Assembly: GCF_003018255.1 (NCBI RefSeq)
Contig: NZ_CP027440.1
Length of the DNA stretch: 64,000 nt
Source: Escherichia coli
GTDB lineage: Bacteria > Pseudomonadota > Gammaproteobacteria > Enterobacterales > Enterobacteriaceae
Reading direction: 5' to 3' (one strand)
Numbering within the stretch: the first letter of the stretch is position 1; each line of letters opens with the position of its first letter. A program made the position numbers and the translations under genes. The notes beneath the pieces are model-generated. The model made no database searches, was not told the DNA's origin, and saw nothing but the letters and a program-made list of their open reading frames with translations. Shown here one piece after another: positions 1 through 56,566 of this stretch.

Positions 1-800
1 TAACCGTCCCCATCGGCATGTCTTTACGTGAAGTCCTGGCGCTGGCGGGCGGCGCAACAGTAGATGCGCCTGGTTTTATCAATGGCGGGCCGATGATGGG
101 AAGTTTGATCACATCGCTCGACACCCCCGTCAGCAAAACCACTGGCGGCTTGCTGGTTTTACCCAACTCTCATTCACTGATCCAACTTCGAATGCAGAAT
201 GACCGCAGCGTACTTACCGTCGCGAAAACTGTTTGTGAGCAATGCCGCTTGTGTACCGATCTCTGCCCACGTCATTTAGTCGGTCACGAACTGGCCCCCC
301 ATTTATTAGTACGTGCGGTTAACTACCAACAGCTCGCTACGCCACAACTGTTACTGACGGCGCTCACCTGTTCGGAGTGCAACGTCTGCGCCAGCGTCGC
401 CTGTCCGGTAGGAATTTCACCAATGCGCATAAACCGCCTGCTTAAGCAGGAATTACGCGCACAAAATCTCCGCTACGAAGGTGCCTTAAATCCTGCTGAT
501 CCCATGGCAAATTATCGACTGATTCCCGTAAAACGGCTGGTAACCAGACTGGGCCTAATCCCGTGGTATCAGGATGCGCCATTGTCTGAACAGGTGCCTC
601 AGACCGAAAAAGTGACGTTATTGTTACGCCAGCACATCGGTGCCAGCGCAATTGCGTGTGTACAAAAAGGCGATCGCGTCGTTCATGGGCAATGTGTAGG
701 TCAAATTCCACACGGCACATTAGGTGCCCCGATTCATGCCAGTATTGATGGCATGGTCAGCGATGTGACAGAAAACGCAATTACGCTTGTGAGAGGTTAA
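1..800 (+). CDS. pduS: PduS-like cobalamin reductase, C-terminal part (gene runs off the 5' window edge)
   Basis: ORF 18..800 is open to the window edge; two ferredoxin-type cysteine clusters ([25 protein letters not shown]) typical of RnfC/PduS; followed directly by BMC shell genes. Family assignment from memory. Confidence 0.65.
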
Positions 801-802
801 CC

Positions 803-1357
803 ATGTCGAAAGCGGTAGGTATTTTAGAACTTAGCAGTATCGCGAAAGGGATGGAAACCGGCGACGCCATGCTGAAAAGCGCCAACGTTGAGTTACTGGT
901 CAGCAAAACGCTATGCCCCGGAAAATTTCTGCTGATGCTCGGTGGCGATGTGGGCGCGGTGCAACAGGCCATCAACAGCGGTGCTTCCGTTGCTGGTGAA
1001 ATGCTGGTCGACAGTCTTGTCCTGCCGAATATTCATCCCAGTCTCCTTTCTGCAATCAGCGGACTGAACCATGTTGAGCAGCACCGGGCTGTCGGCGTAG
1101 TCGAAACCTGGAGTGTCGCTGCCTGCATTGACGCTGCCGATTGTGCTGTCAAAGCTGCGAATGTCATTCTCGTTCGCGTACATATGGCTTTTGGCATTGG
1201 CGGAAAATGCTACATGGTGGTTGCTGGCGATATTTCAGATGTTAATAACGCGGTCTCTGTCGCCAGCGAGCGTGCGGGAGAAAAAGGTTTGTTGGTCTAT
1301 CGGTCGGTGATTGCCCGTCCACATGAAGCCATGTGGCGTCAGATGGTGGAGGGATAA
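803..1357 (+). CDS. pduT: Bacterial microcompartment shell protein, tandem-BMC type (PduT-like)
   Basis: 184 aa ORF with two BMC-like repeats; position between pduS-like and pduU-like genes; stop overlaps next start (TAATG). Confidence 0.7.
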
Positions 1358-1707
1358 TGACAACTCAGCACACAACTGAACGGATGATTCAGGAATATGT
1401 CCCTGGTAAGCAGGTCACGCTGGCACATGTCATCGCCAATCCAGGGAAGGATCTGTTTAAGAAATTGGGTTTACCAGACACCGTTTCTGCTATTGGCATT
1501 CTGACGATTACCCCCAGCGAAGCATCTATCATCGCATGCGATATCGCCACAAAATCAGGCGCTGTAGAGATCGGTTTTCTTGATCGTTTTACCGGTGCCG
1601 TAGTGCTGACTGGTGATGTTTCTGCTATTGAATATGCACTTAGCCAGGTTACCCGTACGCTGGGTGAAATGATGCGCTTTACCGCCTGCCCCATTACGCG
1701 GACCTGA
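1357..1707 (+). CDS. pduU: Microcompartment shell protein PduU/EutS family
   Basis: Translation from the internal ATG ([24 protein letters not shown]...) closely resembles remembered PduU; start chosen at the ATG overlapping the pduT stop. Confidence 0.75.
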
Positions 1708-1711
1708 CGTT

Positions 1712-2155
1712 ATGCAACGTATGATGCTTATCGGCCCCAGCCAGTGCGGAAAAACGTCACTCACGCAATGTCTGCGTGGCGAAAATATCCATTATCAGAA
1801 AACGCAGGCAATCGTCTGGTCCCCGACCACCATTGATACACCAGGCGAATACCTCGAAAACCGCAGCCTTTACAGTGCATTGTTGGTCAGTGCCTGCGAA
1901 GCAGACATTATCGCACTGGTACTTAATGCGGACGCACCGTGGTCACCTTTTTCGCCAGGCTTTACCTCGTCAATGAATCGCCCGGTCATTGGAGTAGTAA
2001 CCAAAGCAGATTTAGCCAGTATGGAACAAATATCTTTGGTGAAATGTTGGTTACGGGAAGCTGGAGCGCACAACGTGTTAGTAACCAGTGCGGTTAATAA
2101 CAATGGAGTTACAGAACTTTTTGCCTTGCTGCATACAGAAGAAGGCTGTCGCTAA
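1712..2155 (+). CDS. pduV: PduV/EutP-family small GTPase of microcompartment operons
   Basis: 147 aa ORF with P-loop (GPSQCGKTS) and EutP/PduV-like length and sequence; last gene before a convergent terminator. Confidence 0.7.
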
Positions 2156-2215
2156 TTTCGATAGGTTCTCAGATGAGAATGATGACGGTGATACACAGAT
2201 AAGAATCAATGAGCA

Positions 2216-2240
2216 ATGAGGGTTGCCGGGCAACCCTCAT
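2216..2240. terminator. Inverted-repeat hairpin between convergent pduV and yeeX
   Basis: Seen in sequence: atgagggttgcc ggg caaccctcat perfect palindrome in the 100-bp gap between two convergent stops. Confidence 0.4.
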
Positions 2241-2255
2241 TGAATAAAACAGGAA

Positions 2256-2585
2256 TTACTTCGCTTCGCCGTTTTTCATTTCGCCCATAGCTTTCAGCTT
2301 TTTGGAGATATCGCGGCGTTCTTTGGAGAGCTCGGCATTTTTGATGATGTAATCGTCAACGCGATCTTCATAGTCACCTTTCATGCTGGCGATGATGCCC
2401 TGGATTGCTTCAACGCTCATCCCTGGCTTGATGTAATCGCTCAGGTTGTCCAGCAGCAGGACGCGCTTCTGGTTGTCACGGATCTTTTTCTCAACGTCCT
2501 GAATTTCACGTTGCAGTTTGTTCTTACGACGGAACAGACGAACAAATTCCAGTACGTCCTGGAATGAAGGCTTGGTAGTTTCCAT
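2256..2585 (-). CDS. yeeX: UPF0265/DUF496 protein YeeX
   Basis: ORF 2256..2651; start placed at internal [14 protein letters not shown] to give the remembered ~109 aa YeeX. Confidence 0.85.
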
Positions 2586-2756
2586 TTTTATACCCCTGAT
2601 AATGTGAGAGTCGGATTCGTTTAAGCAACCGCTATTCGTTAGGGCCAACATTACTCATAGCTGCCGCAGATGACAATGCTTTTATCCCTTTTCACTATCA
2701 TACCCTTTATCCTTGCTGAATCGAAGCAGCAGCAAGATGATTCTGAAGTTCAGGAA

Positions 2757-3815
2757 TTATTTGCGCAAGGCCCGGCAAATCAGATTCGATAGCAACTCAA
2801 GCTGATGTGCCGTTTCCATGTTCAGCCACACATAACCATAGATTGGTGTTTCCACAACCTTCAGGTCATGGTGGTTATCGAGCAACTGACGCAGCTCTTC
2901 CACAGCATCGTTCAATTTTTCCGTATTGGCAAAAACCGGCTGCGGATTACCTTCGTACAGCGCATGAACAAGGCTCAGCAGTATTTGCTGCATCATGTGC
3001 TGGGTATCACGAAGTTTTTGCGCGTTCAATAACACGAAATGGCTGGGGCGCGTGGCCCAGTATGCATTGATTTGCAACTCCAGCATACAAACCAGATTGC
3101 GATTAATGGTCTGGATACCTTCATATATCGATTTGGGAATACGGGTTTCTTTGCTGGCGGGCGCAATCAGCCCACGCATTTTCACGGCATCGGTCAGGAG
3201 TTTTTGTAGATGGCTTTCCAGACGTGGGCGTTCGAGTAAGTTCGGTGAGAATGCAGATTGATAGACCCGATTATACTCGGTCAGACTTTTCGCCAGTTGA
3301 ATGCGCCAGTGGATGAACGCCCGTTGTGGCCAGATACCGGTAAACAACATTGCCAGTAAAGAGCCGAGGATCACATCGCCGCTTCGCCATAACGCCGTAT
3401 CAATTTCACCTGTCGGGGAACCCACAACAATTGCCAGCGTCACCCCAATCAATAATCCTTGATACGGTTTCTTGCCCAGCGCCAGCCAACCGCAAAGAAA
3501 CATCGCCGCCGCGCACCAGACTAACATCAGCGGTAACGAAATTAACTCCAGTTGCAGAGCGATAAGACCTAAAATCGACCCCAACACCGTACCGCCAATA
3601 CGTTCGAAGGCACGAGGGACAACGTTCCCCCAGAACGAGATTGGCCCCATAATCACCACCATGGTGACCAGCGGCCAGGTGCTTTCCGGGATAGTAAACA
3701 GGCGGATAATGAGAAAAGTGAGCAGGAATGCCAGCGCGACCCGAGTACCATGCACAATGCGATAATGGCGGTATACCCGGATTTCAAACGGGCTTAATGA
3801 CTTATCGGCACGCAC
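2757..3815 (-). CDS. yeeA: Inner membrane protein YeeA (fusaric-acid-resistance-like family)
   Basis: 352 aa hydrophobic ORF in the conserved position between yeeX and sbmC. Confidence 0.8.
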   Translation of the reverse strand: MRADKSLSPFEIRVYRHYRIVHGTRVALAFLLTFLIIRLFTIPESTWPLVTMVVIMGPISFWGNVVPRAFERIGGTVLGSILGLIALQLELISLPLMLVWCAAAMFLCGWLALGKKPYQGLLIGVTLAIVVGSPTGEIDTALWRSGDVILGSLLAMLFTGIWPQRAFIHWRIQLAKSLTEYNRVYQSAFSPNLLERPRLESHLQKLLTDAVKMRGLIAPASKETRIPKSIYEGIQTINRNLVCMLELQINAYWATRPSHFVLLNAQKLRDTQHMMQQILLSLVHALYEGNPQPVFANTEKLNDAVEELRQLLDNHHDLKVVETPIYGYVWLNMETAHQLELLSNLICRALRK

Positions 3816-4012
3816 GCAGAAACTCCGTAATGAAGATTAAAAGCGCTCATAACTCATCTGTCGGCCAGAAGGCGCGCCTCTGAATTATCCGACGGACAAA
3901 CCGGGAACAGTGTAATTTCCCGGCAGGAGCGAAAAAATTGAAAGGCGCATCTTACTCTTTTCGCTTTCAAAAAAAGAGTGGTCTTCGCGTCAACACACCG
4001 CCCTGAGATGAA

Positions 4013-4486
4013 TTAGTGATGTTTTGGCTGCACCGCAACATACATTTCGATATCCCAGTACCCATCTTCCGCGCCATTGTTCAAGTAAACCTCGAAGCAG
4101 GGCTTTGGTAACATTTCATAAGCACTGTCCTGCAAGAGGCTATTAAAGAACTGATACCAGGGTTTAGCAAAATCATCACCGACTACACGAGCCACCGCCA
4201 CCGCATACTGACCACCTGAAATTTCTGTCAGAATGACGCCCTCACTGTTTTCGGGGAGCGTAAAGTTATTCGGTACCGTCACGACGGTGTCGCAGCGTAA
4301 TTTTTCGGCGGGTGTTTCATCTGGATTGTCGTAATAGACAGCAACCCACTCCTTCGGCACAATATTTTTGCTATCTATCCACATCATCAACTGCTCAAAA
4401 CCTTTCTTTACCGTCTGCTCCCACGGGCCAACAAGATGGAAACCTGCAACGGTACGTTTCTCTTCCTGCTTAATCTCGTAGTTCAT
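4013..4486 (-). CDS. sbmC: DNA gyrase inhibitor SbmC (GyrI)
   Basis: 157 aa [27 protein letters not shown]...; matches remembered SbmC; conserved neighbour of dacD. Confidence 0.9.
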
Positions 4487-4502
4487 GACGCCTCCATTAA
4501 CA

Positions 4503-4518
4503 CTGTTTTTATATACAG
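4503..4518. promoter_or_regulatory. Candidate LexA (SOS) box upstream of sbmC
   Basis: Seen in sequence: CTGT-ttttatat-ACAG (CTGT-N8-ACAG) about 17 bp upstream of the sbmC start; sbmC is a known SOS gene (established knowledge). Confidence 0.5.
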
Positions 4519-4604
4519 TATAGTTGCAATATTAAAACCACAAGGAATGAGTGTTGATTATGCGAGCAGACTCGCACTCCTGCCAGTCTGCTGCAAAAGA
4601 AAGG

Positions 4605-5777
4605 TCAGGCCTTATGGTGGAAATAATCACTCAGGCGGGAAAACATGCCGCCTTCCCCGACAGATTCCAGGGTAACCAGCGGCCAGTGCGCCACCTGTTT
4701 ATCACGGTCGTAAAGTTCAATTTCCCCTACCCGCTGATGGGCGCTAATTGGCGCGGTGAGCTCTTTACCATCAAGGGTATATTTGGCTTTGATATGTGGA
4801 ATTTCGGCTTTCGGTAGCACCATCCAGAACTCTTGTTCCGTTCCCAGGTCGATATTTTCTTTATCGCCATACCAGATGCGTTCCGTTCCGACCTTTTTCC
4901 CACGGTGCAAAATTTGCACCGTAGTAAAGTTTTGTTGCCCCCAACGCAGTAATTTTCTTGCCTCTTCCTCACGACCTTTTGCACTGTCAGCCCCCATTAC
5001 CACTGCAATGAGACGACGCTGCCCATCTACAGCCGAAGCAATGAGATTAAACCCGGCACCAGAAGTATGACCCGTTTTCAGGCCGTCAACATTCATGGTT
5101 TTATCCCACAACAACCCGTTACGGTTTTGCTGGGTGATACCGTTCCAGGTGAGGCTTTTCTCACTGTACATATGATAAAACTCGGGCTCGCCGTGGATGA
5201 TAGCGCGAGAAAGCACAGCTAAATCATAAGCCGAGCTATGCTGGCCAGGTGCATCCAGACCATGCACTGTTTCAAAATGCGTATCCTTGAGATGCAGCTT
5301 CTCGGCATAGTTGTTCATCATTGCAACAAACTGCCGTTGCCCACCGGCAATATAGTCAGCCAGTGCAACACAAGCATCATTTCCGGAATCCACAATTAAA
5401 CCACGGCTTAAATCACGTACCGATACGCGATCGCCCTCTTTCAAAAACATCAGTGAAGAACCGACAAACACTGGATTATCTTTCGCCCACGCATCGCGCC
5501 CTACGGTGACAATATCGTCTGGCGTAATTCGATGACTATCGATAGCGCGATCCACGACATAACCCGTCATCAGCTTTGTCAGGCTGGCGGGATTGCGCTG
5601 TTGATGCTCATTACCCGCGGTGAGGATCTGTCCGGTGGTGTAATCCATCAATACCCAGGACCCGGCATGAATCTCTGGAGGCTGAGGTGAAAAAGGAATG
5701 TTTTCCGCCGCAAAACCAGACGATAAGTTAAAAACGAACAAAGAAGCAGCAATAATAAGACGGCGTTTCAACAGCAA
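4605..5777 (-). CDS. dacD: D-alanyl-D-alanine carboxypeptidase DacD (PBP6b)
   Basis: 390 aa ORF with signal peptide and SxxK active-site motif (ASLTKLMT), typical of class C low-molecular-weight PBPs; synteny. Confidence 0.9.
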   Translation of the reverse strand: MLLKRRLIIAASLFVFNLSSGFAAENIPFSPQPPEIHAGSWVLMDYTTGQILTAGNEHQQRNPASLTKLMTGYVVDRAIDSHRITPDDIVTVGRDAWAKDNPVFVGSSLMFLKEGDRVSVRDLSRGLIVDSGNDACVALADYIAGGQRQFVAMMNNYAEKLHLKDTHFETVHGLDAPGQHSSAYDLAVLSRAIIHGEPEFYHMYSEKSLTWNGITQQNRNGLLWDKTMNVDGLKTGHTSGAGFNLIASAVDGQRRLIAVVMGADSAKGREEEARKLLRWGQQNFTTVQILHRGKKVGTERIWYGDKENIDLGTEQEFWMVLPKAEIPHIKAKYTLDGKELTAPISAHQRVGEIELYDRDKQVAHWPLVTLESVGEGGMFSRLSDYFHHKA

Positions 5778-5979
5778 ACCCTCAGGAGTTTCAAATAGCT
5801 GTTCTTTTTACGGAAATACTTATGAACTGGCTGGAATAAAGTGCAAGAAAATGTGACTAACCTCTCATTTTTATCTGACATGATCTGTTGCCACTCGCTG
5901 CCAAATTGTGGCGCTAAAGCTGATTAGCACGGTGATATTTGATACTCTGGCAGACAGCAGAGATAACGGATTTAACCTA

Positions 5980-7407
5980 ATGATGAATGACGGTAAGCAA
6001 CAATCTACCTTTTTGTTTCACGATTACGAAACCTTTGGCACGCACCCCGCGTTAGATCGCCCTGCACAGTTCGCAGCCATTCGCACCGATAGCAAATTCA
6101 ATGTCATCGGCGAACCCGAAGTCTTTTACTGCAAGCCCGCGGATGACTATTTACCCCAGCCTGGAGCAGTATTAATTACCGGTATTACCCCGCAGGAGGC
6201 ACGGGCGAAAGGAGAAAACGAAGCCGCGTTTGCCGCCCGTATTCACTCGCTTTTTACCGTACCGAAGACCTGTATTCTGGGCTACAACAATGTGCGTTTC
6301 GACGACGAAGTCACACGCAACGTTTTTTATCGTAATTTCTACGATCCTTACGCCTGGAGCTGGCAGCATGATAACTCGCGCTGGGATTTACTGGATGTTA
6401 TGCGTGCCTGTTATGCCCTGCGCCCGGAAGGAATAAACTGGCCTGAAAATGATGACGGTCTACCGAGCTTTCGCCTTGAGCATTTAACCAAAGCGAATGG
6501 TATTGAACATAGCAACGCCCACGATGCGATGGCTGATGTGTACGCCACTATTGCGATGGCGAAACTGGTAAAAACGCGTCAGCCACGCCTGTTTGATTAT
6601 CTCTTTACCCATCGTAATAAACACAAACTGATGGCGTTGATTGATGTTCCGCAGATGAAACCCTTGGTTCACGTTTCCGGAATGTTTGGGGCATGGCGCG
6701 GCAATACCAGCTGGGTGGCACCGCTGGCGTGGCATCCTGAAAATCGCAATGCCGTAATTATGGTGGATTTGGCAGGAGACATTTCGCCATTACTGGAGCT
6801 GGATAGCGACACATTGCGCGAGCGTTTATATACCGCAAAAGCCGATCTTGGCGATAACGCCGCCGTTCCGGTTAAGCTGGTGCATATCAATAAATGTCCG
6901 GTACTGGCCCAGGCGAATACGCTACGCCCGGAAGATGCCGACCGACTGGGAATTAATCGTCAGCATTGCCTCGATAACCTAAAAATTCTGCGTGAAAATC
7001 CGCAAGTGCGTGAAAAAGTGGTGGCGATATTCGCGGAAGCCGAACCGTTTACGCCTTCAGATAACGTGGATGCACAGCTTTATAATGGCTTTTTCAGTGA
7101 CGCCGATCGTGCAGCAATGAAAATTGTGCTGGAAACCGAGCCGCGTAATTTACCGGCACTGGATATCACTTTTGTTGATAAACGAATTGAAAAACTGTTG
7201 TTCAATTATCGAGCGCGCAACTTCCCGGGGACGCTGGATTATGCCGAGCAGCAACGCTGGCTGGAGCACCGCCGCCAGGTCTTCACGCCAGAGTTTTTGC
7301 AGGGCTACGCTGATGAATTGCAGATGCTGGCACAACAGTATGCTGATGACAAAGAGAAAGTGGCGCTGTTAAAAGCGCTTTGGCAGTACGCGGAAGAGAT
7401 CGTCTGA
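5980..7407 (+). CDS. sbcB: Exodeoxyribonuclease I
   Basis: ORF 5908..7407; start placed at MMNDGKQQSTFLFHDYETFGTHPALDRPAQFAAIRTD (DEDDh exonuclease signature), giving the remembered ~475 aa. Confidence 0.95.
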   Translation: MMNDGKQQSTFLFHDYETFGTHPALDRPAQFAAIRTDSKFNVIGEPEVFYCKPADDYLPQPGAVLITGITPQEARAKGENEAAFAARIHSLFTVPKTCILGYNNVRFDDEVTRNVFYRNFYDPYAWSWQHDNSRWDLLDVMRACYALRPEGINWPENDDGLPSFRLEHLTKANGIEHSNAHDAMADVYATIAMAKLVKTRQPRLFDYLFTHRNKHKLMALIDVPQMKPLVHVSGMFGAWRGNTSWVAPLAWHPENRNAVIMVDLAGDISPLLELDSDTLRERLYTAKADLGDNAAVPVKLVHINKCPVLAQANTLRPEDADRLGINRQHCLDNLKILRENPQVREKVVAIFAEAEPFTPSDNVDAQLYNGFFSDADRAAMKIVLETEPRNLPALDITFVDKRIEKLLFNYRARNFPGTLDYAEQQRWLEHRRQVFTPEFLQGYADELQMLAQQYADDKEKVALLKALWQYAEEIV

Positions 7408-7410
7408 AAC

Positions 7411-7443
7411 AAAAAAGCCGGAGCGACAAACTCCGGCTTTTTG
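7411..7443. terminator. Bidirectional Rho-independent terminator between convergent sbcB and plaP
   Basis: Seen in sequence: aaaaaa-GCCGGAG-cgacaaa-CTCCGGC-ttttt; A-run before and T-run after a GC-rich stem. Confidence 0.65.
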
Positions 7444-7480
7444 AGATTTACCGGATGATTATGTCATCCGGTTTGTAAGA

Positions 7481-8839
7481 TTACGCTACGTCTTCGTACT
7501 GCGGAACCGGGTTACGGAAACTCTTGGTTACGCAAGCCAGGTAAATCAGACCGATAGCAGCCCAGATCAGACCCAGAACCATTGAGCTTTCTTCCAGGTT
7601 AACCCACAGCGCACCAACGGTCAGCGCACCACACATCGGCAGGAACAGATACTGGAAGTGATCTTTCAGCGTCTTGTTACGCTTCTCACGGATCCAGAAC
7701 TGCGAGATGACCGACAGGTTAACGAAGGTGAACGCCACCAACGCACCAAAGTTAATCAGCGCCGTAGCCATTACCAGGTCGAAGTTGATTGCCAGCAGGG
7801 CAATCGCGCCAACCAGGATGATGTTCATCGCCGGAGTACGCCATTTCGGGTGTACATAACCGAAGAAGCTTTTCGGGAACACGCCGTCACGACCCATTAC
7901 GTACATCAGACGCGCTACGCCTGCGTGCGCCGCCATACCGGACGCCAGTACGGTAATGGTGGAGAAGATCAGCGCGCCAACCTGGAACGCTTTACCCGCA
8001 ACGTACAGCATGATTTCAGGCTGTGACGCATCCGGATCTTTAAAGCGAGAGATATCCGGGAAGTACAGCTGCAGGAAGTAAGTTGCAAAGATGAAGATCA
8101 TGCCGCCGATCAGCGCGGTCAGGAAAATCGCACGCGGGATCACGCGCTCTGCATCTTTGGTTTCTTCCGACAGGTTGCTGATGCCGTCAAAACCGGTAAA
8201 GGAGAAGCACAGGATTGTCGCCCCGGTAATCATCGGGATAACATGCGCATCGCCAGACCAGAACGGACGAGTGCTCGCCAGCGTACCAGCGCCTTCACCT
8301 TCAAATACGCCATAAACAACCATGCCCAGAATCACCGCGATCAGCACTACCTGCAACACGACGATTACAGTGTTGAAGTTCGCTACGGATTTCAGACTAC
8401 GCAGGTTAAAGGCGGTCATAAAGGCCACCAGCGCCACCACAAACATCCACGATGGAATGGAAGGCACCAGAGCTTCAAAATAGATTTTCGCCAGCAGAAT
8501 GTTGATCATCGGCGCGAACAGATAGTCGAGCAGAGAAGACCAACCCACCATAAAGCCGACAGTCGGGCTAATGGATTTCTGGGCGTAAGTGTATGCAGAG
8601 CCAGCAGAAGGATAGCGGCGAACCAGCTTCCCGTAGCTCAGAGCCGTAAACAGGATCGCAATCAATGCGAACGCATAGGCTGTCGGCACATGACCATCCG
8701 TGAGGCCTGAAACGATACCAAAAGTATCAAACAGCGTCATCGGCTGCATATAGGCTAGACCCATCATTACAACCGGAACTAACGTAAGCGTTTTACGCAA
8801 TTCCACGCGAGAGGTGTTTGGAGTAACGTTATGCGACAT
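7481..8839 (-). CDS. plaP: Putrescine importer PlaP (APC superfamily permease, formerly YeeF)
   Basis: ORF 7481..8845, polytopic amino acid/polyamine permease-like; start placed at [16 protein letters not shown]. Confidence 0.9.
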
Positions 8840-9105
8840 GGTCATTCTCCTTTACGGTGATAACCGTCGCGTAAGCAAAAAATTGCCCCATTTTTTTGGA
8901 TTCCTCAGCGACAACAACTGTCGATTTTTAGTAAATATCTATCCGGTACGAAGCCCGGCCTCTTGGTATGAATGATTGGTTTGAAGCAAAAAATAACCGA
9001 CGCTAATTAAACGTCGGTTTTTAGTCATTTTTTGACAGCGGCGCATTGTGCCTAAATGGGGGGGAAATGACAAGAGAATGAGAGGCTTGTCATAATAATT
9101 TTTCT

Positions 9106-10905: not shown

Positions 10906-11009
10906 CCGTTATCTCCTGATACACCTTAGATCTATAAGGCTACGCTAGCGTATCAAAACTGACAATTCATTCTATGAATGAAATCGAAACGGTTAGCAAA
11001 TATACCATT

Positions 11010-11109
11010 GCCTGATGCGCTCCGCTTATCAGCCCTACAAAAACATCAATATATTGAATTTAGGCAACATTTGTAGACCTGATAAGGCATTCACGCCGCA
11101 TCCGGCAGG
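11010..11109. repeat. REP pair (BIME-like) in the yeeZ-hisL intergenic region
   Basis: Seen in sequence: gcctgatgcgctccgcttatcagccctaca ... tgtagacctgataaggcattcacgccgcatccggcagg, the canonical E. coli REP palindromic units in inverted orientation. Confidence 0.6.
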
Positions 11110-11329
11110 AACAAAGCCCACTTTAGTTACAGAACACAATGTTCTTGAGGATTTAATGACATATTTTCACGATTACTTTTTTAACCTAGTCACTCTTAGC
11201 CCCTCCTTACCCCGCTCATTCATTAAACAAATCCATCGCCATAAAATATATAAAAAAGCCCTTGCTTTCTAACGTGAAAGTGGTTTAGGTTAAAAGACAT
11301 CAGTTGAATAAACATTCACAGAGACTTTT

Positions 11330-11380
11330 ATGACACGCGTTCAATTTAAACACCACCATCATCACCATCATCCTGACTAG
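11330..11380 (+). CDS. hisL: his operon leader peptide
   Basis: Seen in sequence: ATG ACA CGC GTT CAA TTT AAA followed by seven consecutive His codons, CCT GAC TAG (MTRVQFKHHHHHHHPD). Confidence 0.95.
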   Translation: MTRVQFKHHHHHHHPD

Positions 11381-11440
11381 TCTTTCAGGCGATGTGTGCT
11401 GGAAGACATTCAGATCTTCCAGTGGTGCATGAACGCATGA

Positions 11441-11480
11441 GAAAGCCCCCGGAAGATCACCTTCCGGGGGCTTTTTTATT
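11441..11480 (+). terminator. his attenuator terminator hairpin
   Basis: Seen in sequence: gaaaGCCCCCGGAAG-atcac-CTTCCGGGGGC-ttttttatt immediately upstream of hisG. Confidence 0.85.
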
Positions 11481-22599: not shown

Positions 22600-22706
22600 T
22601 GTTTACTCCTGTCAGGTGGAAAACTAAATACTTTTAGAGTTAGCGTTATATTAACTGATATCATTTGATGATAGTAGATAATATTATGATAAATACTGAC
22701 TCAGTA

Positions 22707-23723
22707 TCACTCAGAATATCCATTCGGATTTTTATTTTGCCATCTCCAAGCATCAGTAATCATATCCTCAAGTGTACGCTTTGCTTCCCAATGAAGCTCT
22801 TTAATAGCTAAATCTGGTTTTGACCAACATTCAGCGATATCTCCAAGCCTTCGCTCAGAAATAACATAAGGTATTTTTATTCCGGTTATTTTTTGAAAGG
22901 CATCAATAATCTCTTTTACTGAATATCCTTTACCTGTGCCTAGGTTATAATAACGTAACCCACCGTATATATTTTGTTTTTTTAGCGCTGCAATATGACC
23001 TTCCGCTAAGTCCATAACATGTATGTAATCTCTAACTCCGGTGCCATCAACCGTAGGATAATCCCCCCCATATATGGTCAACTTCTCAAGTTTCCCAACA
23101 GCAACCTGTGTTAAATAGGGAAAAAGGTTGCTTGGTACACCATTAGGATCCTCACCAATTAAACCAGAATAATGTGCGCCTACAGGATTAAAATATCTCA
23201 AGCAAGTTGCATTAAATTTAAATTCATAATTGGTTATATCTTCAAGCATTCTTTCAACAATATATTTTGTCGTCCCATATGGATTTGTTGTTCCTCCTGT
23301 ACTGCAATTTTCGTGCACCGGAATAGCTGTAGGATTGCCATATACTGTTGCGGATGAACTAAAAATAAAATTGTAAATTTTATTTTTTAACATCGAGTCA
23401 ATTAAATGCAAAGTTCCAATAACATTATTCTCATAATACTGAATGGGTTTTTTAATTGATTCCGAAACAGATTTTAGCGCAGCAAAATGAATAACAGCCT
23501 CGATATCATTATTTGCAAACACAGAATCAATCAAGTCAATGTTGCGTATATCTCCTTCATATATAATTATTTTCTTAGAAGTCAAATACTCCACTCTTTT
23601 TAAAGCAATCTTTGAAGAGTTACTAAAATTATCAATAACAATAACATCATAGTTATGATTTAAAAGTTGCAATACTGTATGTGAACCAATATATCCTGCC
23701 CCACCAGTCACGAGAACAGCCAT
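22707..23723 (-). CDS. gne: UDP-N-acetylglucosamine / UDP-glucose 4-epimerase (GalE/Gne family)
   Basis: 338 aa short-chain dehydrogenase/reductase ORF with GGAGYIGS and YxxxK catalytic motif (YGTTK); last gene of the AT-rich O-antigen cassette next to gnd. Confidence 0.8.
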   Translation of the reverse strand: MAVLVTGGAGYIGSHTVLQLLNHNYDVIVIDNFSNSSKIALKRVEYLTSKKIIIYEGDIRNIDLIDSVFANNDIEAVIHFAALKSVSESIKKPIQYYENNVIGTLHLIDSMLKNKIYNFIFSSSATVYGNPTAIPVHENCSTGGTTNPYGTTKYIVERMLEDITNYEFKFNATCLRYFNPVGAHYSGLIGEDPNGVPSNLFPYLTQVAVGKLEKLTIYGGDYPTVDGTGVRDYIHVMDLAEGHIAALKKQNIYGGLRYYNLGTGKGYSVKEIIDAFQKITGIKIPYVISERRLGDIAECWSKPDLAIKELHWEAKRTLEDMITDAWRWQNKNPNGYSE

Positions 23724-23756
23724 ACCCTCTCCTTTAAAAACATTTTTTATAAGAAA

Positions 23757-24734
23757 CTATCTGTTTTTTACTTGATACAAGAAATGATAAACTGGAAAGA
23801 ATTTTTTAATCAACAACAAGCGAAACGCATAATACATACCAAAAGCCTGTTCGCAATTCATTTTCTGCTCTATGTTTTTCGGCAAAACTATTTTATTTTT
23901 TTTACATAAAAGGAATATATAAATCAAAAAATCATTGTATCTTTTCTTAAGATAATACTTGACCAATCTATTCTTTGTTGTTTGTATAATACATCTATAG
24001 GTTTTTAATACTTCCAGATAACCAATTATATTGCGAGAGCTAATTTTACTTGTCATTATTGAGTTTTCCCTTACCCTTCGGTAAAAATAAATCTCATCGG
24101 TACAATAACACAACTTAGAATCTAAAATAATCCTAGGTAAGTACTCTTCATCCTCATGAACTATATTTTTAAAAAATGAATTTCGCATTAATAATTCAGT
24201 TCTAAATACATTAATGCAAACAGATGAAAAGTAAGAATTGGTTGAAAATAATCTTTCTAAAAAAACATCACCAGACTTACAAATTTGAAATTTAGTTCGT
24301 TTATATGAAGGAATTTTACCTGCCAAATTAGAAGGGAGCCCTAATATTGATCCTGAAAATGCTATAATGTCTAACTCTTTATAATTAGTCAATATTTCAT
24401 TAATATCCCTTATAAACATTGGACTCAAAGCATCATCAGAGTCAAAAAAATAGACGTATGGTGTGCTAACTTTTGTCAGACCATAATTCCTAGCACTGCT
24501 TAAACCACCATTTTCTTTAGAAAATATCTTATAATTATCCTTACCCTCTATTCTTTTTTTAAGGAGAGGTATCGAATCATCACTAGAACCATCATCCACG
24601 ATGATAACTGAATGTGGTTGCATAGACTGATTTATAATAGAATCTATAGCCTCAACAATATAATCTTGGACATTGTACACAGGCATAACAATTGATATTA
24701 ATTTGGAAATCTCATTTTCTTTTTGGCAAAGCAT
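23757..24734 (-). CDS. Glycosyltransferase family 2 (O-unit glycosyltransferase)
   Basis: 325 aa ORF; N-terminal GT-A signature (ISIVMPVYN ... IIVDDGSSD); AT-rich codon usage. Confidence 0.75.
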   Translation of the reverse strand: MLCQKENEISKLISIVMPVYNVQDYIVEAIDSIINQSMQPHSVIIVDDGSSDDSIPLLKKRIEGKDNYKIFSKENGGLSSARNYGLTKVSTPYVYFFDSDDALSPMFIRDINEILTNYKELDIIAFSGSILGLPSNLAGKIPSYKRTKFQICKSGDVFLERLFSTNSYFSSVCINVFRTELLMRNSFFKNIVHEDEEYLPRIILDSKLCYCTDEIYFYRRVRENSIMTSKISSRNIIGYLEVLKTYRCIIQTTKNRLVKYYLKKRYNDFLIYIFLLCKKNKIVLPKNIEQKMNCEQAFGMYYAFRLLLIKKFFPVYHFLYQVKNR

Positions 24735-26145
24735 TGTTTAATAATCCCACAATGGTATTTTTATCAATAATAAACATAAGACAAACATAACTCCCTGCAC
24801 CTATAACGATATAATAAATCAAAGATAATAATTCCATATTATTAGATTGAGTTATAAAATTATTTTTAGCAATCAGTATCAAAATTAGCATGCAAACACT
24901 ACAAAACAAAGGTTTACATGTTATACATAAAATGTTTTTTATGTTACCTTGGAGCAATCTCATGACGTAATAAAAGCAGATGTAAAATATTAATACATTC
25001 GCACAAAGATATAACTGGCAGAATATAACGATATTGAAGCATGCCCCAATAACAAATGACATAACTTGAATTATTGCACTCACACAACCAATCCTTGCCA
25101 GCAACTTAACGTTACCTAAAGATAAAAAAACTACTCCTGTAGTGCTCGTGAGTGCTTGGATAATCCCAACAGGTGCCAACCATTTTAAAAGAAGAGCAGC
25201 ATTATCCCAATTTTTACCAAACAGAAAAAAAACTAACTCGTTACTTAACGAAGCGAGCCCAATCATGGCAGGAATTGACAAAACTGCAATGAACTTTAGC
25301 GAGTCTAAATATATTCTTTTTTTTGTTATAATATCTTTTGAATGACTTAGCTTAGGCAATAAAGCTCTATTAAATATATAAGTTATATTTTGAACTGGAA
25401 ATAACATAAGTCTATATGCTAATGCATAATTACCTAAAACATACTGCCCAAAAATTTTTCCAACTATAATATTATCAGCGTTACGTGAGAAATAATTCAC
25501 CATATTAAATGACATTACATTAACACAATAGCCAAATATTAATTTTATATATTTCATCCGCCAAGAAAATTTATATTTTCTTCTATTTTTAAGGCTCAAT
25601 AAAAAAACAACAATAACTGCATACAAAAGGGCCTGTAGAGACACAGCATAAAGTCCAAAGCCCATGGCAATTACTATAAAAACAACAATGATTGAAATCG
25701 ATAATGATATCAACTCTATGAGAGCAGTAATATTGAACTGTTGGTTTCGTTCTAATAAAGCAAAATTAAAAGCAATAAAACTTTGTAAAGGAAATGAAAA
25801 AGAGATGATCAATATTAATAGAAACAACCTTGTGTCATTGTAAAAAAGGGATATTGGATAAGCTAATAATGTCATTACGATAAAAATAACGAGACCGCTT
25901 ATAAAGTTTAATGTGTATGTGGATTTAATAAAATTTTCACTTATTCTTCTCCGTTGAATTAATATTGATGACGTCCCCATATCTCTAAAGAGCATGGCAA
26001 ATGCAGCCACTACGCTTACAATGGAAATCAAACCATAGTCATAAGGCGTTAAATAACGAGCCAGTACAAAGATCAAAACTAATTGGCTCAGAGCTCTTGC
26101 AATTTGAGATAAAGCGACCCATTTTACTCCTGTTATCAAAAGCAT
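24712..26145 (-). CDS. wzx: O-antigen flippase
   Basis: 477 aa polytopic ORF with Wzx-like N-terminus (ALSQIARALSQLVLIFVLARYLTPYDYGLISIVSV); AT-rich. Confidence 0.75.
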   Translation of the reverse strand: MLLITGVKWVALSQIARALSQLVLIFVLARYLTPYDYGLISIVSVVAAFAMLFRDMGTSSILIQRRRISENFIKSTYTLNFISGLVIFIVMTLLAYPISLFYNDTRLFLLILIISFSFPLQSFIAFNFALLERNQQFNITALIELISLSISIIVVFIVIAMGFGLYAVSLQALLYAVIVVFLLSLKNRRKYKFSWRMKYIKLIFGYCVNVMSFNMVNYFSRNADNIIVGKIFGQYVLGNYALAYRLMLFPVQNITYIFNRALLPKLSHSKDIITKKRIYLDSLKFIAVLSIPAMIGLASLSNELVFFLFGKNWDNAALLLKWLAPVGIIQALTSTTGVVFLSLGNVKLLARIGCVSAIIQVMSFVIGACFNIVIFCQLYLCANVLIFYICFYYVMRLLQGNIKNILCITCKPLFCSVCMLILILIAKNNFITQSNNMELLSLIYYIVIGAGSYVCLMFIIDKNTIVGLLNNALPKRK

Positions 26146-26152
26146 TTTATTA

Positions 26153-27100
26153 TTATCTCACTCTTTTTTTAAAATGGTTTTCATAAACTTTTTGCTTCAA
26201 ATATATAATGCCAGGGAACGCTCTTTTGAGTAGCAACTTAGTTGCAAATAATGTCCAGTATTGTTTTTTTGCTATAAAAGAAAATATAATTTTAATTTTT
26301 AAACATCTTAACATCATTAACCTAAACAGGTTATAATTCTTTGTATCATTGTACATTATATTCTTATATTTAAAATAATACTTCCGATATGCCACATAAT
26401 CTTTAATATTCTTGGTTATTCTAACACCTTCATGAGAAATATCCATATAGTAAGTATTAGCGTTTAACCTCCTGGCACTCCCATAAACTTGAATAAGTTT
26501 AGTCCAAACATCTTGATCTTGTAACCGTTTAAAATCAATAGAAAATCCTCCAACTGATAACAAACGCTCTCGCTCAACTAAAATCTGGTTACCAGCTTCA
26601 TTTTCCTTGAGTATACTTTGTAAATCAATGATACATTCTCTTTGAAATCGTGCATGATTATTTGTTCCAGTCACTATTATATAGTTATCGCAGATAAAGG
26701 AAAATTCCTTGTTATAATGATTAACCAGAATCTGTAACCTATCTTCTTTGAAATAATCATCATCATCCAACCCTGTAATGAAGAAACCTTTTGCATGCTT
26801 TAATCCTCTATTTCTAGAAAAATTAGCCCCCATATTTCTTGGGTTTTTCTTATATATAAAATTCTTAATATTTGGTGTTGCTACTTCTTGCAATTCTTTT
26901 ACAATCAAGTCAACTTCATAACTAGAGTTATCATCGACTACGATTAATTCTATTTTTGAATAAGTTTGATTAAATACTGATAATATTGCTCTGCGCAACA
27001 GCAAAGGGCGATTATAAGATGTTATAAGAACGCTTACTAATTTTTCCATTTCTTTTTCAAAACCATCAACAAAGTAATTATAACCAAAGAATAGATCCAC
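26153..27100 (-). CDS. Glycosyltransferase family 2
   Basis: 315 aa ORF; GT-A signature (VSVLITSYNRP ... IVVDDNSS). The true start may be the internal ATG near 27049, reducing the overlap with wzy. Confidence 0.7.
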   Translation of the reverse strand: MDLFFGYNYFVDGFEKEMEKLVSVLITSYNRPLLLRRAILSVFNQTYSKIELIVVDDNSSYEVDLIVKELQEVATPNIKNFIYKKNPRNMGANFSRNRGLKHAKGFFITGLDDDDYFKEDRLQILVNHYNKEFSFICDNYIIVTGTNNHARFQRECIIDLQSILKENEAGNQILVERERLLSVGGFSIDFKRLQDQDVWTKLIQVYGSARRLNANTYYMDISHEGVRITKNIKDYVAYRKYYFKYKNIMYNDTKNYNLFRLMMLRCLKIKIIFSFIAKKQYWTLFATKLLLKRAFPGIIYLKQKVYENHFKKRVR

Positions 27101-37012: not shown

Positions 37013-37595
37013 GCCTGATGCGACGCTAACGCGTCTTATCAGACCTACAAGTCCCGAGCACAGAACCGTAGGCCGGATAAGGCGTTCACGCCGCATCCGG
37101 CATTCAGTGCCTGATGCGACGCTGACGCGTCTTATCAGGCCTACAAGATCCGAGCACAGAACCGTAGGACGGATAAGGCGTTCACGCCGCATCCGGCATT
37201 CAGTGCCTGATGCGACGCTGACGCGTCTTATCAGGCCTACAAGATCCGAGCACAGAACCGTAGGACGGATAAGGCGTTCACGCCGCATCCGGCATTCAGT
37301 GCCTGATGCGACGCTGACGCGTCTTATCAGGCCTACAAGACCCGAGCACAGAGCCGTAGGACGGATAAGGCGTTTTACGCCGCATCCGGCATTCAGTGCC
37401 TGATGCGACGCTGACGCGTCTTATCAGGCCTACAAGATCCGAGCACAGAACCGTAGGCCGGATAAGGCGTTCACGCCGCATCCGGCATTCAGTGCCTGAT
37501 GCGACGCTGGCGCGTCTTATCAGGCCTACAAGATCCAAGCCCAGCCCCCCAGGACGGATAAGGCGTTTTACGCCGCATCCGGCAACCGTTGCCGG
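37013..37595. repeat. Tandem array of about six 96-97 bp BIME units (inverted REP pairs) between wcaK and wzxC
   Basis: Seen in sequence: unit gcctgatgcgacgctgacgcgtcttatcaggcctacaagatccgagcacagaaccgtaggacggataaggcgttcacgccgcatccggcattcagt begins at about 37013, 37109, 37205, 37301, 37398 and 37494 with few substitutions. Confidence 0.85.
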
Positions 37596-37611: not shown

Positions 37612-39090
37612 TCACCCCGCCCGTAAAAGCATTTTCATTTTTTCGCTGCGACAAAACTGACGCTTCACTTCCACCACCAGCGGATGGCGTGACAGCACAA
37701 TCATCACCACAAACGCCAGCACGCCTGCGGCTATTTGCACCGCCAGCAGCATCCCCAGCGCCAGTTGCCCTTTCAGCACAATGCCCAGCGCATAACTGAC
37801 CCCCAGTGTCGGCAACGAGAGATAAAACGGCAGCCACAAACTCAGGATGTACTGGCGATAACTGGAACCAAGAACCGGTTTAATCATCACGAAGTAACTC
37901 AGAATGGTGTTGATAATCTGCACCAGCAGGAAACCGAGCGTGACGCCGATTGCGCCCGCCATCTGCCCACCAATAACAATCGCCGGAATAAACAGAAATG
38001 TTTTGAATACGTTGAATTTAAAGCTGATATCGACCCGCGCTTTCGCCATCAGCAGCGAACCAATCGGGTTACCCACCGAACGCAGCAGTCCCACCACACA
38101 CAGCAATTGCAGCACCGGAATAATGCTGTTCCACTTCTCACCAAAGACCAGCGGTACAAAGTTATTCGACACCACCATCAGCCCCAGCAGCGCCGGAAAG
38201 TTGATAATCCCCACCACCGACAGCAGCTTGTAGAAGTTGACGCGCAGCTTTTCGGTGTCGTCCTGAATTTTGGCAAATGCCGGAAACAACACGCGGGTGA
38301 TGATTGGGTTCAGCTTCATCGGCGGCACAACGGCCACGTTGTACGCCAGGTTGTATCCCCCTGCCACGCCCGCGCCGAGAATACGCGCCAGCACCAGCGT
38401 TGAAAGGTTAGTGTTGAGATAGTTGATGATGCTGTCCGCCGTCAGCCAGGCACCAAAGCGTAAGTTCGGTGCCACCGACGCCAGCGAGAAATGCAGACCG
38501 GGGCGATAAATTTTGCGACCAAAGTAGCCAAACAGCAGCGTTCTCACCGCACTATTGACCAGATAACCGAGGATCGCAGTCATCGCCAGCGGCCAGAAAT
38601 GGGCGCTAACCACCGTAAAAGTGAAGCCCGCCAGCACCGCGCTGGTTTCGATCATGCCGATTTTGTTGAACTCCAGCTCCTTCTGCATCAACGCGCGGAA
38701 CTGTTGCCCGTGGGGGATTACCACAAACGCCAGCGACAATGTTTTAATCAACGGTGCCAGGTCCGGGTTGTTCAGCACGTCACCAATGAGATCACTCAAC
38801 AAAAACACCGCCACACACACCACAAGCCCCAGCCCGACGTTTAGCCAGTACAGCGTGGTGAGTTCAAGGTGGCTGATTTCTTTTCGCTGAATAATCGAGT
38901 TAGCGATACCGAAGTCAGAAAGCGTATCTGCCAGCGCGATAATCACCAGCGACACGGTAAGCAGGCCGAACTGGTGGTTGTCGATAATCCGCGCCAGCAC
39001 GGTCATCTGCACCAGCCCAAGGCCGATGATGATCACCGTGGCAATCGCCGACCACTTCGCGCCGCTGATGGTTTTTTCACGTAAGCTCAT
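37612..39090 (-). CDS. wzxC: Colanic acid repeat-unit flippase
   Basis: 492 aa polytopic ORF; synteny. Confidence 0.9.
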   Translation of the reverse strand: MSLREKTISGAKWSAIATVIIIGLGLVQMTVLARIIDNHQFGLLTVSLVIIALADTLSDFGIANSIIQRKEISHLELTTLYWLNVGLGLVVCVAVFLLSDLIGDVLNNPDLAPLIKTLSLAFVVIPHGQQFRALMQKELEFNKIGMIETSAVLAGFTFTVVSAHFWPLAMTAILGYLVNSAVRTLLFGYFGRKIYRPGLHFSLASVAPNLRFGAWLTADSIINYLNTNLSTLVLARILGAGVAGGYNLAYNVAVVPPMKLNPIITRVLFPAFAKIQDDTEKLRVNFYKLLSVVGIINFPALLGLMVVSNNFVPLVFGEKWNSIIPVLQLLCVVGLLRSVGNPIGSLLMAKARVDISFKFNVFKTFLFIPAIVIGGQMAGAIGVTLGFLLVQIINTILSYFVMIKPVLGSSYRQYILSLWLPFYLSLPTLGVSYALGIVLKGQLALGMLLAVQIAAGVLAFVVMIVLSRHPLVVEVKRQFCRSEKMKMLLRAG

Positions 39091-41911: not shown

Positions 41912-42001
41912 ATCGTTACCCTTTTTCAGGCAATAGTTGGCCCTGACCGAAGCGGCCAATTTTGTTTTTGTCGTTATTTACATCGCGGTTTCGCATTCAT
42001 T

Positions 42002-56527: not shown

Positions 56528-56566
56528 CACGCTACCGCCCCTGGCTTTTTAGCTACCAATACACTG
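56528..56566 (-). promoter_or_regulatory. JUMPstart/ops element in the wza 5' leader
   Basis: Seen in sequence: minus strand reads cagtgtattggtagctaaaaagccaggGGCGGTAGCGTG, a 39-bp JUMPstart with exact ops 12-mer, about 180 bp upstream of wza. Confidence 0.8.

Follow-up and report, generated by a model that had tools for sequence, protein, structure and literature searches.

The distal end of a pdu microcompartment operon of Escherichia coli, very probably native, that stops at pduV beside tmaR

In the Pdu microcompartment system of Salmonella and Citrobacter, B12, in the form of cob(II)alamin, is recycled within the compartment by the flavin/Fe-S cobalamin reductase PduS. Two minor tiles of the shell are PduT, a trimeric tandem-BMC protein with a 4Fe-4S cluster at its pore that is liganded by Cys38, and PduU, a permuted BMC hexamer; PduV is a small P-loop protein on the outer side of the shell. 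In the operon of these genera (pduA-X), pduV is separated from tmaR by pduW (404 aa) and pduX (300 aa), and a cbi/cob operon for de novo B12 synthesis lies adjacent; the Escherichia locus has neither the two genes nor this neighbouring operon. PduW is the propionate kinase of the degradation pathway and PduX an L-threonine kinase for B12 synthesis (PMC9132943).

The Escherichia locus itself is already known. A 2010 study described the pdu cluster of E. coli LF82 and E2348/69 (PMC2941450); in 2017, pdu was found to be enriched among Crohn's-associated strains, homologues of the LF82-type operon were noted in E. albertii and Shigella, and a separate Citrobacter/Klebsiella-like pdu operon was reported (PMC5517970). 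Adherent-invasive and enteropathogenic strains, as well as colonisation of the gut, have repeatedly been associated with the 1,2-propanediol trait (PMC2941450, PMC5517970, PMC6379400). An expression table for LF82 lists pduB to pduV, with no entries for pduW or pduX, and gives lengths of 554, 350 and 443 bp for pduT, pduU and pduV (PMC6379400). An explicit statement that E. coli lacks pduW and pduX was not found in the literature, the LF82 gene table being indirect evidence.

Here, we analyse the start of a 64,000-nucleotide stretch of E. coli DNA (contig NZ_CP027440.1), referred to as the window, and propose that it opens in the distal end of a native chromosomal pdu operon, a minority accessory locus from which pduW and pduX were lost and the rest of which most strains later deleted, a reading that we consider very probable. 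The LF82/E2348/69-type operon (pocR-pduF, pduABCDEGHJKLMNOPQSTUV) agrees with the locus described here in its genes, their order, the chromosomal site and the end at pduV by tmaR/yeeX, and its pduT, pduU and pduV lengths match those of the genes in the window; the differences are allelic only, and the upstream part of the operon lies outside the window.

Genes and proteins at the operon end

The window starts within pduS (1..800, + strand), whose C-terminal 265 codons are read from base 3 to a stop at 798-800, so that 265 of about 447 residues are visible and the N-terminal NADH/FMN part lies outside. Downstream on the same strand follow pduT (803..1357), encoding a tandem-BMC-domain shell protein of 184 aa, pduU (1357..1707), encoding a circularly permuted BMC shell protein of 116 aa, and pduV (1712..2155), encoding an EutP/PduV-family small GTPase-like protein of 147 aa and forming the last gene of the operon. 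As judged from the ORFs and their translations, all four frames are uninterrupted and pduT, pduU and pduV are intact. ORFs, alignments and motifs all agree with the first-pass annotation of this DNA, which had the window starting inside a PduS-like gene and continuing through apparently intact PduT, PduU and PduV genes. The overlapping stops and starts that it had also described apply to pduT/pduU, which share one base in TAATG (-1 nt), but not to pduS/pduT or pduU/pduV, which lie +2 and +4 nt apart, respectively. The gene packing from pduS to pduV is operon-like throughout.

The PduS fragment contains a partial SLBB domain, Fer4_17 and an RnfC_N barrel (Pfam), as well as two intact 4Fe-4S motifs of the CxxCxxCxxxCP type. 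Over all of its 265 aa, it matches the C-terminal part of an annotated 447-aa protein of NZ_CP027452 at 100% identity and PduS of Salmonella and Citrobacter at 75-81%. Residues 1-184 of PduT align to the solved PduT structures PDB 3PAC and 3N79 (E ~1e-96) and Cys38 is retained; against NCBIfam TIGR02526 the protein scores 156 bits, under the cut-off of 250.3, and its predicted membership of the PduT family is based on the PDB alignment together with the RefSeq annotation of the closest genome. PduU aligns over residues 2-116 to the Salmonella PduU structure PDB 3CGI (E 5.5e-64) and scores 134.7 bits against the EutS/PduU subfamily model NF012012 (cut-off 123). PduV reaches 186.7 bits against the curated EutP/PduV model TIGR02528 (cut-off 138.35), covering profile positions 1-141 of 142, and its P-loop (Walker A), DTPG and TKAD motifs are all intact; a PDB sequence search with PduV found no close solved relative.

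These family assignments bring in the related eut microcompartment, as PduU belongs to the EutS subfamily and PduV to the EutP/PduV family. In contrast to this kinship, Eut equivalog models score far under their cut-offs (e.g. EutP, 45.7 versus 258), the strongest matches are to Pdu proteins, and the genes lie in a pdu context. By tblastn, PduS, PduT, PduU and PduV are 67-92% identical at the amino acid level to their counterparts in Salmonella, Citrobacter, Klebsiella and others over essentially the whole length. The earlier reading of the ORFs had hung on their aligning full-length to PduT, PduU and PduV, and they do so both in the PDB alignments and by tblastn. By analogy, the products of the four genes should act as their Salmonella counterparts do, as enzyme and as shell proteins. 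PADLOC defence models had no matches among the four proteins, an Rfam scan of window 1-2700 returned none, and a consensus promoter scan of 1-2800 found no promoter on the + strand.

Downstream of pduV, a 100-nt spacer (2156..2255) that is homologous across Escherichia species separates the operon from the convergent core gene tmaR (formerly yeeX, DUF496; 2256..2585, - strand). The identity of tmaR is supported by its profile matches, above the cut-offs of both NF003844 (197 bits) and NF040881 (TmaR, 187 bits), and by RefSeq annotation, tmaR being annotated in every matching genome; beyond it lie yeeA, sbmC, dacD and sbcB. Within the spacer, a perfect 13-bp hairpin spans 2214..2242, lying beyond the stop codons of both tmaR (by 14 nt) and pduV (by 59 nt). 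The first-pass annotation had described just this sequence of elements, an operon stopping at pduV followed by a hairpin and a convergent yeeX. The predicted folding energies of the hairpin on the + and - strands are -21.8 kcal/mol (z = -4.4) and -21.0 kcal/mol (z = -4.9), respectively, and a single compensatory substitution, from G-C to A-U, is seen in E. whittamii. Neither strand shows a canonical U-tract, and a terminator scan of 1-2800 did not call the hairpin. We regard it as a common 3' stem-loop of the convergent pduV and tmaR, more plausibly belonging to tmaR, and as a putative terminator.

Published RNA-seq data from LF82 touch on the same end of the operon. There, bile salts induced pduB-pduT but neither pduU nor pduV (fold change 1.1 and -1.2), and the basal read count of pduV was high (PMC6379400). 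This pattern hints at separate or antisense transcription at the operon end, possibly by read-through from tmaR.

The pduV-tmaR junction across genera

How unusual is a pdu operon in which pduV is followed directly by tmaR? The absence of pduW and pduX after pduV, noted in the first pass, is borne out by tblastn with Salmonella PduW and PduX, which gave no match in window 1-8000 and hence none between pduV and tmaR. For comparison, a PduU-motif scan of one genome per species in 100,044 species yielded 38 loci, in each of which PduS, T, U, V, W and X as well as TmaR, YeeA and SbmC were located by tblastn. In Citrobacter, Salmonella, Klebsiella, Raoultella, Pseudocitrobacter and an Enterobacter-labelled contig, every locus that reaches past pduV continues with pduW, and then with pduX if it is long enough. 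Where loci of Citrobacter, Salmonella, Raoultella and Pseudocitrobacter reach further, tmaR-yeeA-sbmC follows pduX; four Klebsiella loci extend past pduX, with no tmaR in the fetched stretch. In the native-type Escherichia loci, however, pduV is followed directly by tmaR, namely in two E. coli-labelled species representatives (L005, L011), in E. albertii (L003) and in E. whittamii (L031), and the pduV-tmaR spacers of these three species have a mean column identity of 90%.

The end at pduV is thus the genus-wide state of the native Escherichia loci recovered. What had been flagged as an unusual 3' end turns out to be the normal Escherichia arrangement, seen in these loci and in the 643 E. coli genomes described below. 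The comparison with the Salmonella and Citrobacter operons proposed in the first-pass annotation has a double outcome: PduS to PduV are orthologous and align full-length at the 67-92% identity given above, and tmaR-yeeA-sbmC lies downstream in both cases, but those genera add pduW-pduX in between. To the question of whether pduW and pduX exist elsewhere in the genome, the answer is negative at DNA-detectable similarity: among 5,426 complete E. coli genomes, only a single one gave a sensitive blastn match to Citrobacter pduW-pduX DNA, and this match lay at a different locus. That genome belongs to strain 48, a deer isolate with a second, IS-flanked pdu operon of foreign type that includes pduW but no pduX.

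Were pduW and pduX lost from the Escherichia operon, or were they never part of it and added in the other genera? The spacer speaks little to this choice. No recognisable remnant of pduW or pduX was found in 2156-2255; Smith-Waterman alignment of the spacer with six outgroup pduW-pduX regions scored no better than shuffles, and an nhmmer profile of outgroup pduX 3' ends left the window unmatched, with a match in E. albertii at shuffle level only. A remnant sought by global alignment with one big gap was rejected, the alignment being fragmented. A MAFFT alignment places the stop codon of outgroup pduX in the left arm of the hairpin next to tmaR, where E. coli has retained a string resembling it (GCAATGAGGGTTGCC versus GCAATAAGGGTCGCC; also given as ...CAATGAGGGTTGCC), a resemblance that is suggestive only.

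A 100-nt spacer in which no remnant can be statistically supported is what one would expect if the genes had never been there, and the case for loss therefore rests on parsimony across genera. Because the order pduV-pduW-pduX occurs in several genera, including Klebsiella and Raoultella besides Citrobacter, Salmonella, Pseudocitrobacter and the Enterobacter-labelled contig, an operon that never held the two genes in Escherichia would need several independent gains elsewhere, or one gain followed by transfers, against a single loss; the string in the hairpin arm suggestively points the same way. We therefore judge later addition in the other genera to be very improbable, and loss of pduW and pduX in the Escherichia stem is the favoured reading.

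One entry of the scan deserves separate mention. Two loci (L013 and L014) come from one metagenome-assembled genome, 'Citrobacter sp.' HRGM_Genome_0066, in which the pdu proteins of one contig are 98-100% identical to those of the E. coli window and the other contig has a Citrobacter-type pduV-W-X order; this assembly looks like a mixture of E. coli and Citrobacter contigs.

Distribution in E. coli and the region upstream

Nearly all complete E. coli genomes match some part of window 1-2700 (5,417 of 5,426), but only 643 (11.9%) match at least 80% of it, at 97.7-99.6% identity. In all 643 carriers the segment is chromosomal and adjoins tmaR. In nearly all other genomes the match starts at 1973, keeping the last 183 nt of pduV, the spacer and tmaR. 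The stub segment (1973..2155, + strand), the final 61 codons of pduV, is the scar that survives in K-12, O157, O55 and most other E. coli. On K-12-type chromosomes the match is limited to 1973-2700, consistent with the statement in the first-pass annotation that K-12 has no intact pdu operon here. From the final 183 nt of pduV through the spacer and hairpin to tmaR, the K-12 remnant is 98.6% identical to the window, while the sequence upstream of 1973 is replaced by a transposase fragment and genes of a CP4-44-type island. In a K-12 derivative and in O55:H7, the stub comes directly after this transposase fragment at the end of the island, which carries yeeR, yeeS, yeeT, cbeA, cbtA and yeeW.

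In a few E. coli genomes the match starts not at 1973 but at 1857, or as late as 2230, and in one genome a PduV fragment directly adjoins the cbi remnant. The locus therefore has at least two deletion alleles.

The window begins inside pduS, and the state of the operon upstream has to be judged from relatives. The closest genome, E. coli 2014C-3338 (NZ_CP027452; 99.6% identity), has an uninterrupted pduABCDEGHJKLMNOPQSTUV with divergent pduF and pocR, in which the genes for the diol dehydratase PduCDE, the reactivase PduGH and the shell proteins PduABJKN are present and intact. On the far side of pocR are a cobalamin riboswitch, a small hypothetical gene and cobU-S-T; no cbi genes, which serve de novo B12 synthesis, lie between the riboswitch and cobUST. 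We used as query the 15.8-kb upstream region of this genome, which extends from pduS through pduA, pduF and pocR to the cobalamin riboswitch and the cbi remnant; of the 5,426 complete E. coli genomes, 636 contain at least 80% of it. Put differently, 636 of the 643 carriers of the segment also hold at least 80% of pocR-pduF-pduA..pduS, and seven fall short.

Could the present genome nonetheless have kept only the tail of a decaying operon, with the upstream genes deleted or pseudogenised? The deletion scars at this locus in most E. coli, with further breakpoints such as 1857 and 2230, show that such losses do happen, and the upstream sequence lies outside the window. Against this, the four frames and every checked motif are intact, nearly all segment carriers hold the upstream operon and the nearest relative is complete. 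We consider such a remnant very improbable and a complete pdu operon upstream very likely, as the first-pass annotation had suggested for the locus. The genome would then very probably be one of the roughly 12% of E. coli that can assemble Pdu microcompartments and grow on or otherwise use 1,2-propanediol.

The native origin of the operon has likewise to be weighed against the possibility that the locus arrived recently by horizontal transfer from Salmonella, Citrobacter or Klebsiella, its part beyond pduV being cut off during insertion. Transfers of this kind have precedents, as foreign-type pdu operons occur in Escherichia, both in Escherichia sp. MOD1-EC7003 (L036) and in the IS-flanked island of E. 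coli strain 48, and a Citrobacter/Klebsiella-like operon has been reported from one Crohn's isolate (PMC5517970). The proteins encoded in the window, however, are just 67-92% identical to those of the three candidate donors, compared with 88-99% to those of other Escherichia species, in which the junction and spacer are also the same. Furthermore, the divergence within E. coli (97.7-99.6% identity) is like that of the core genome, the G+C content of the locus (51-53%) is the same as that of its flanks, with no anomaly in composition, and no mobile-element genes adjoin the locus in NZ_CP027452. Recent acquisition is therefore extremely improbable, and a native operon is the reading with which we continue.

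The foreign-type operon of MOD1-EC7003 includes pduW and is Klebsiella/Citrobacter-like, with a PduV 69% identical to that of the window, and that of strain 48 (L042; NZ_CP166879 5244959-5274131) ends at IS66/IS21/IS4 fragments near a cdi locus.

A proposed history and other features of the window

How might a native operon have come to end at pduV? In the account that we propose, the pdu locus lies between the cob region and tmaR/yeeX, a chromosomal position that it shares with its Salmonella and Citrobacter counterparts, and the Escherichia lineage would have lost pduW and pduX before its species diverged, leaving an operon that ends at pduV. The PduW propionate kinase would be redundant with the housekeeping enzymes AckA and TdcD, E. 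coli's own acetate/propionate kinases, which may plausibly replace it. The PduX L-threonine kinase would be needed only for de novo B12 synthesis, and the same lineage, having lost cbi as well, would have been left with just cobUST for salvage; because of this, PduX would have no role in the Escherichia locus, and the loss of pduW and pduX fits a locus that also lost cbi. Most E. coli, including K-12, would later have deleted the rest of the operon, so that a 183-nt pduV stub remains beside the CP4-44-type island.

A more specific version of this history is possible, although we hold it to be doubtful: the loss of pduW/pduX and of cbi would be a single ancestral event common to E. coli, E. albertii and E. 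whittamii, and the stub would stem from one later deletion linked to the CP4-44-type island. If true, the Escherichia-type pdu locus would depend on B12 salvage and on AckA/TdcD, and a single ancestral loss of pduW/pduX and cbi may never have been stated explicitly in the literature. Beyond correct annotation the finding matters little, and its comparative point is one of evolutionary bookkeeping.

Several further features of the window were observed outside the pdu locus. Rfam matches include an STnc240 sRNA (8986-9060, - strand), a His leader (11356-11479, + strand), JUMPstart elements ahead of the O-antigen operon (30597-30635, - strand) and ahead of the colanic-acid operon (41916-41965, - strand), and an algC RNA motif (56528-56566, - strand). 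The yefM-yoeB toxin-antitoxin genes are absent at 10983-11190, where about 210 nt of REP-like palindromic sequence stand in their place; in the closest pdu-matching genome, yefM-yoeB lies between yeeZ and the his leader (L001, 30987-31489). The O-antigen cluster (22600-30700) has wzx/wzy of the O185 family and matches six of the 5,426 complete E. coli genomes, at 98.5-98.8% identity, and the source strain would therefore be of a rare serogroup and itself outside the 5,426. Finally, five tandem units of about 96 nt that match Rfam naRNA4, a REP-derived nucleoid-associated RNA, are located at 37071-37526 on the + strand, between wcaK (35671-36951) and the colanic-acid flippase gene (37612-39090).
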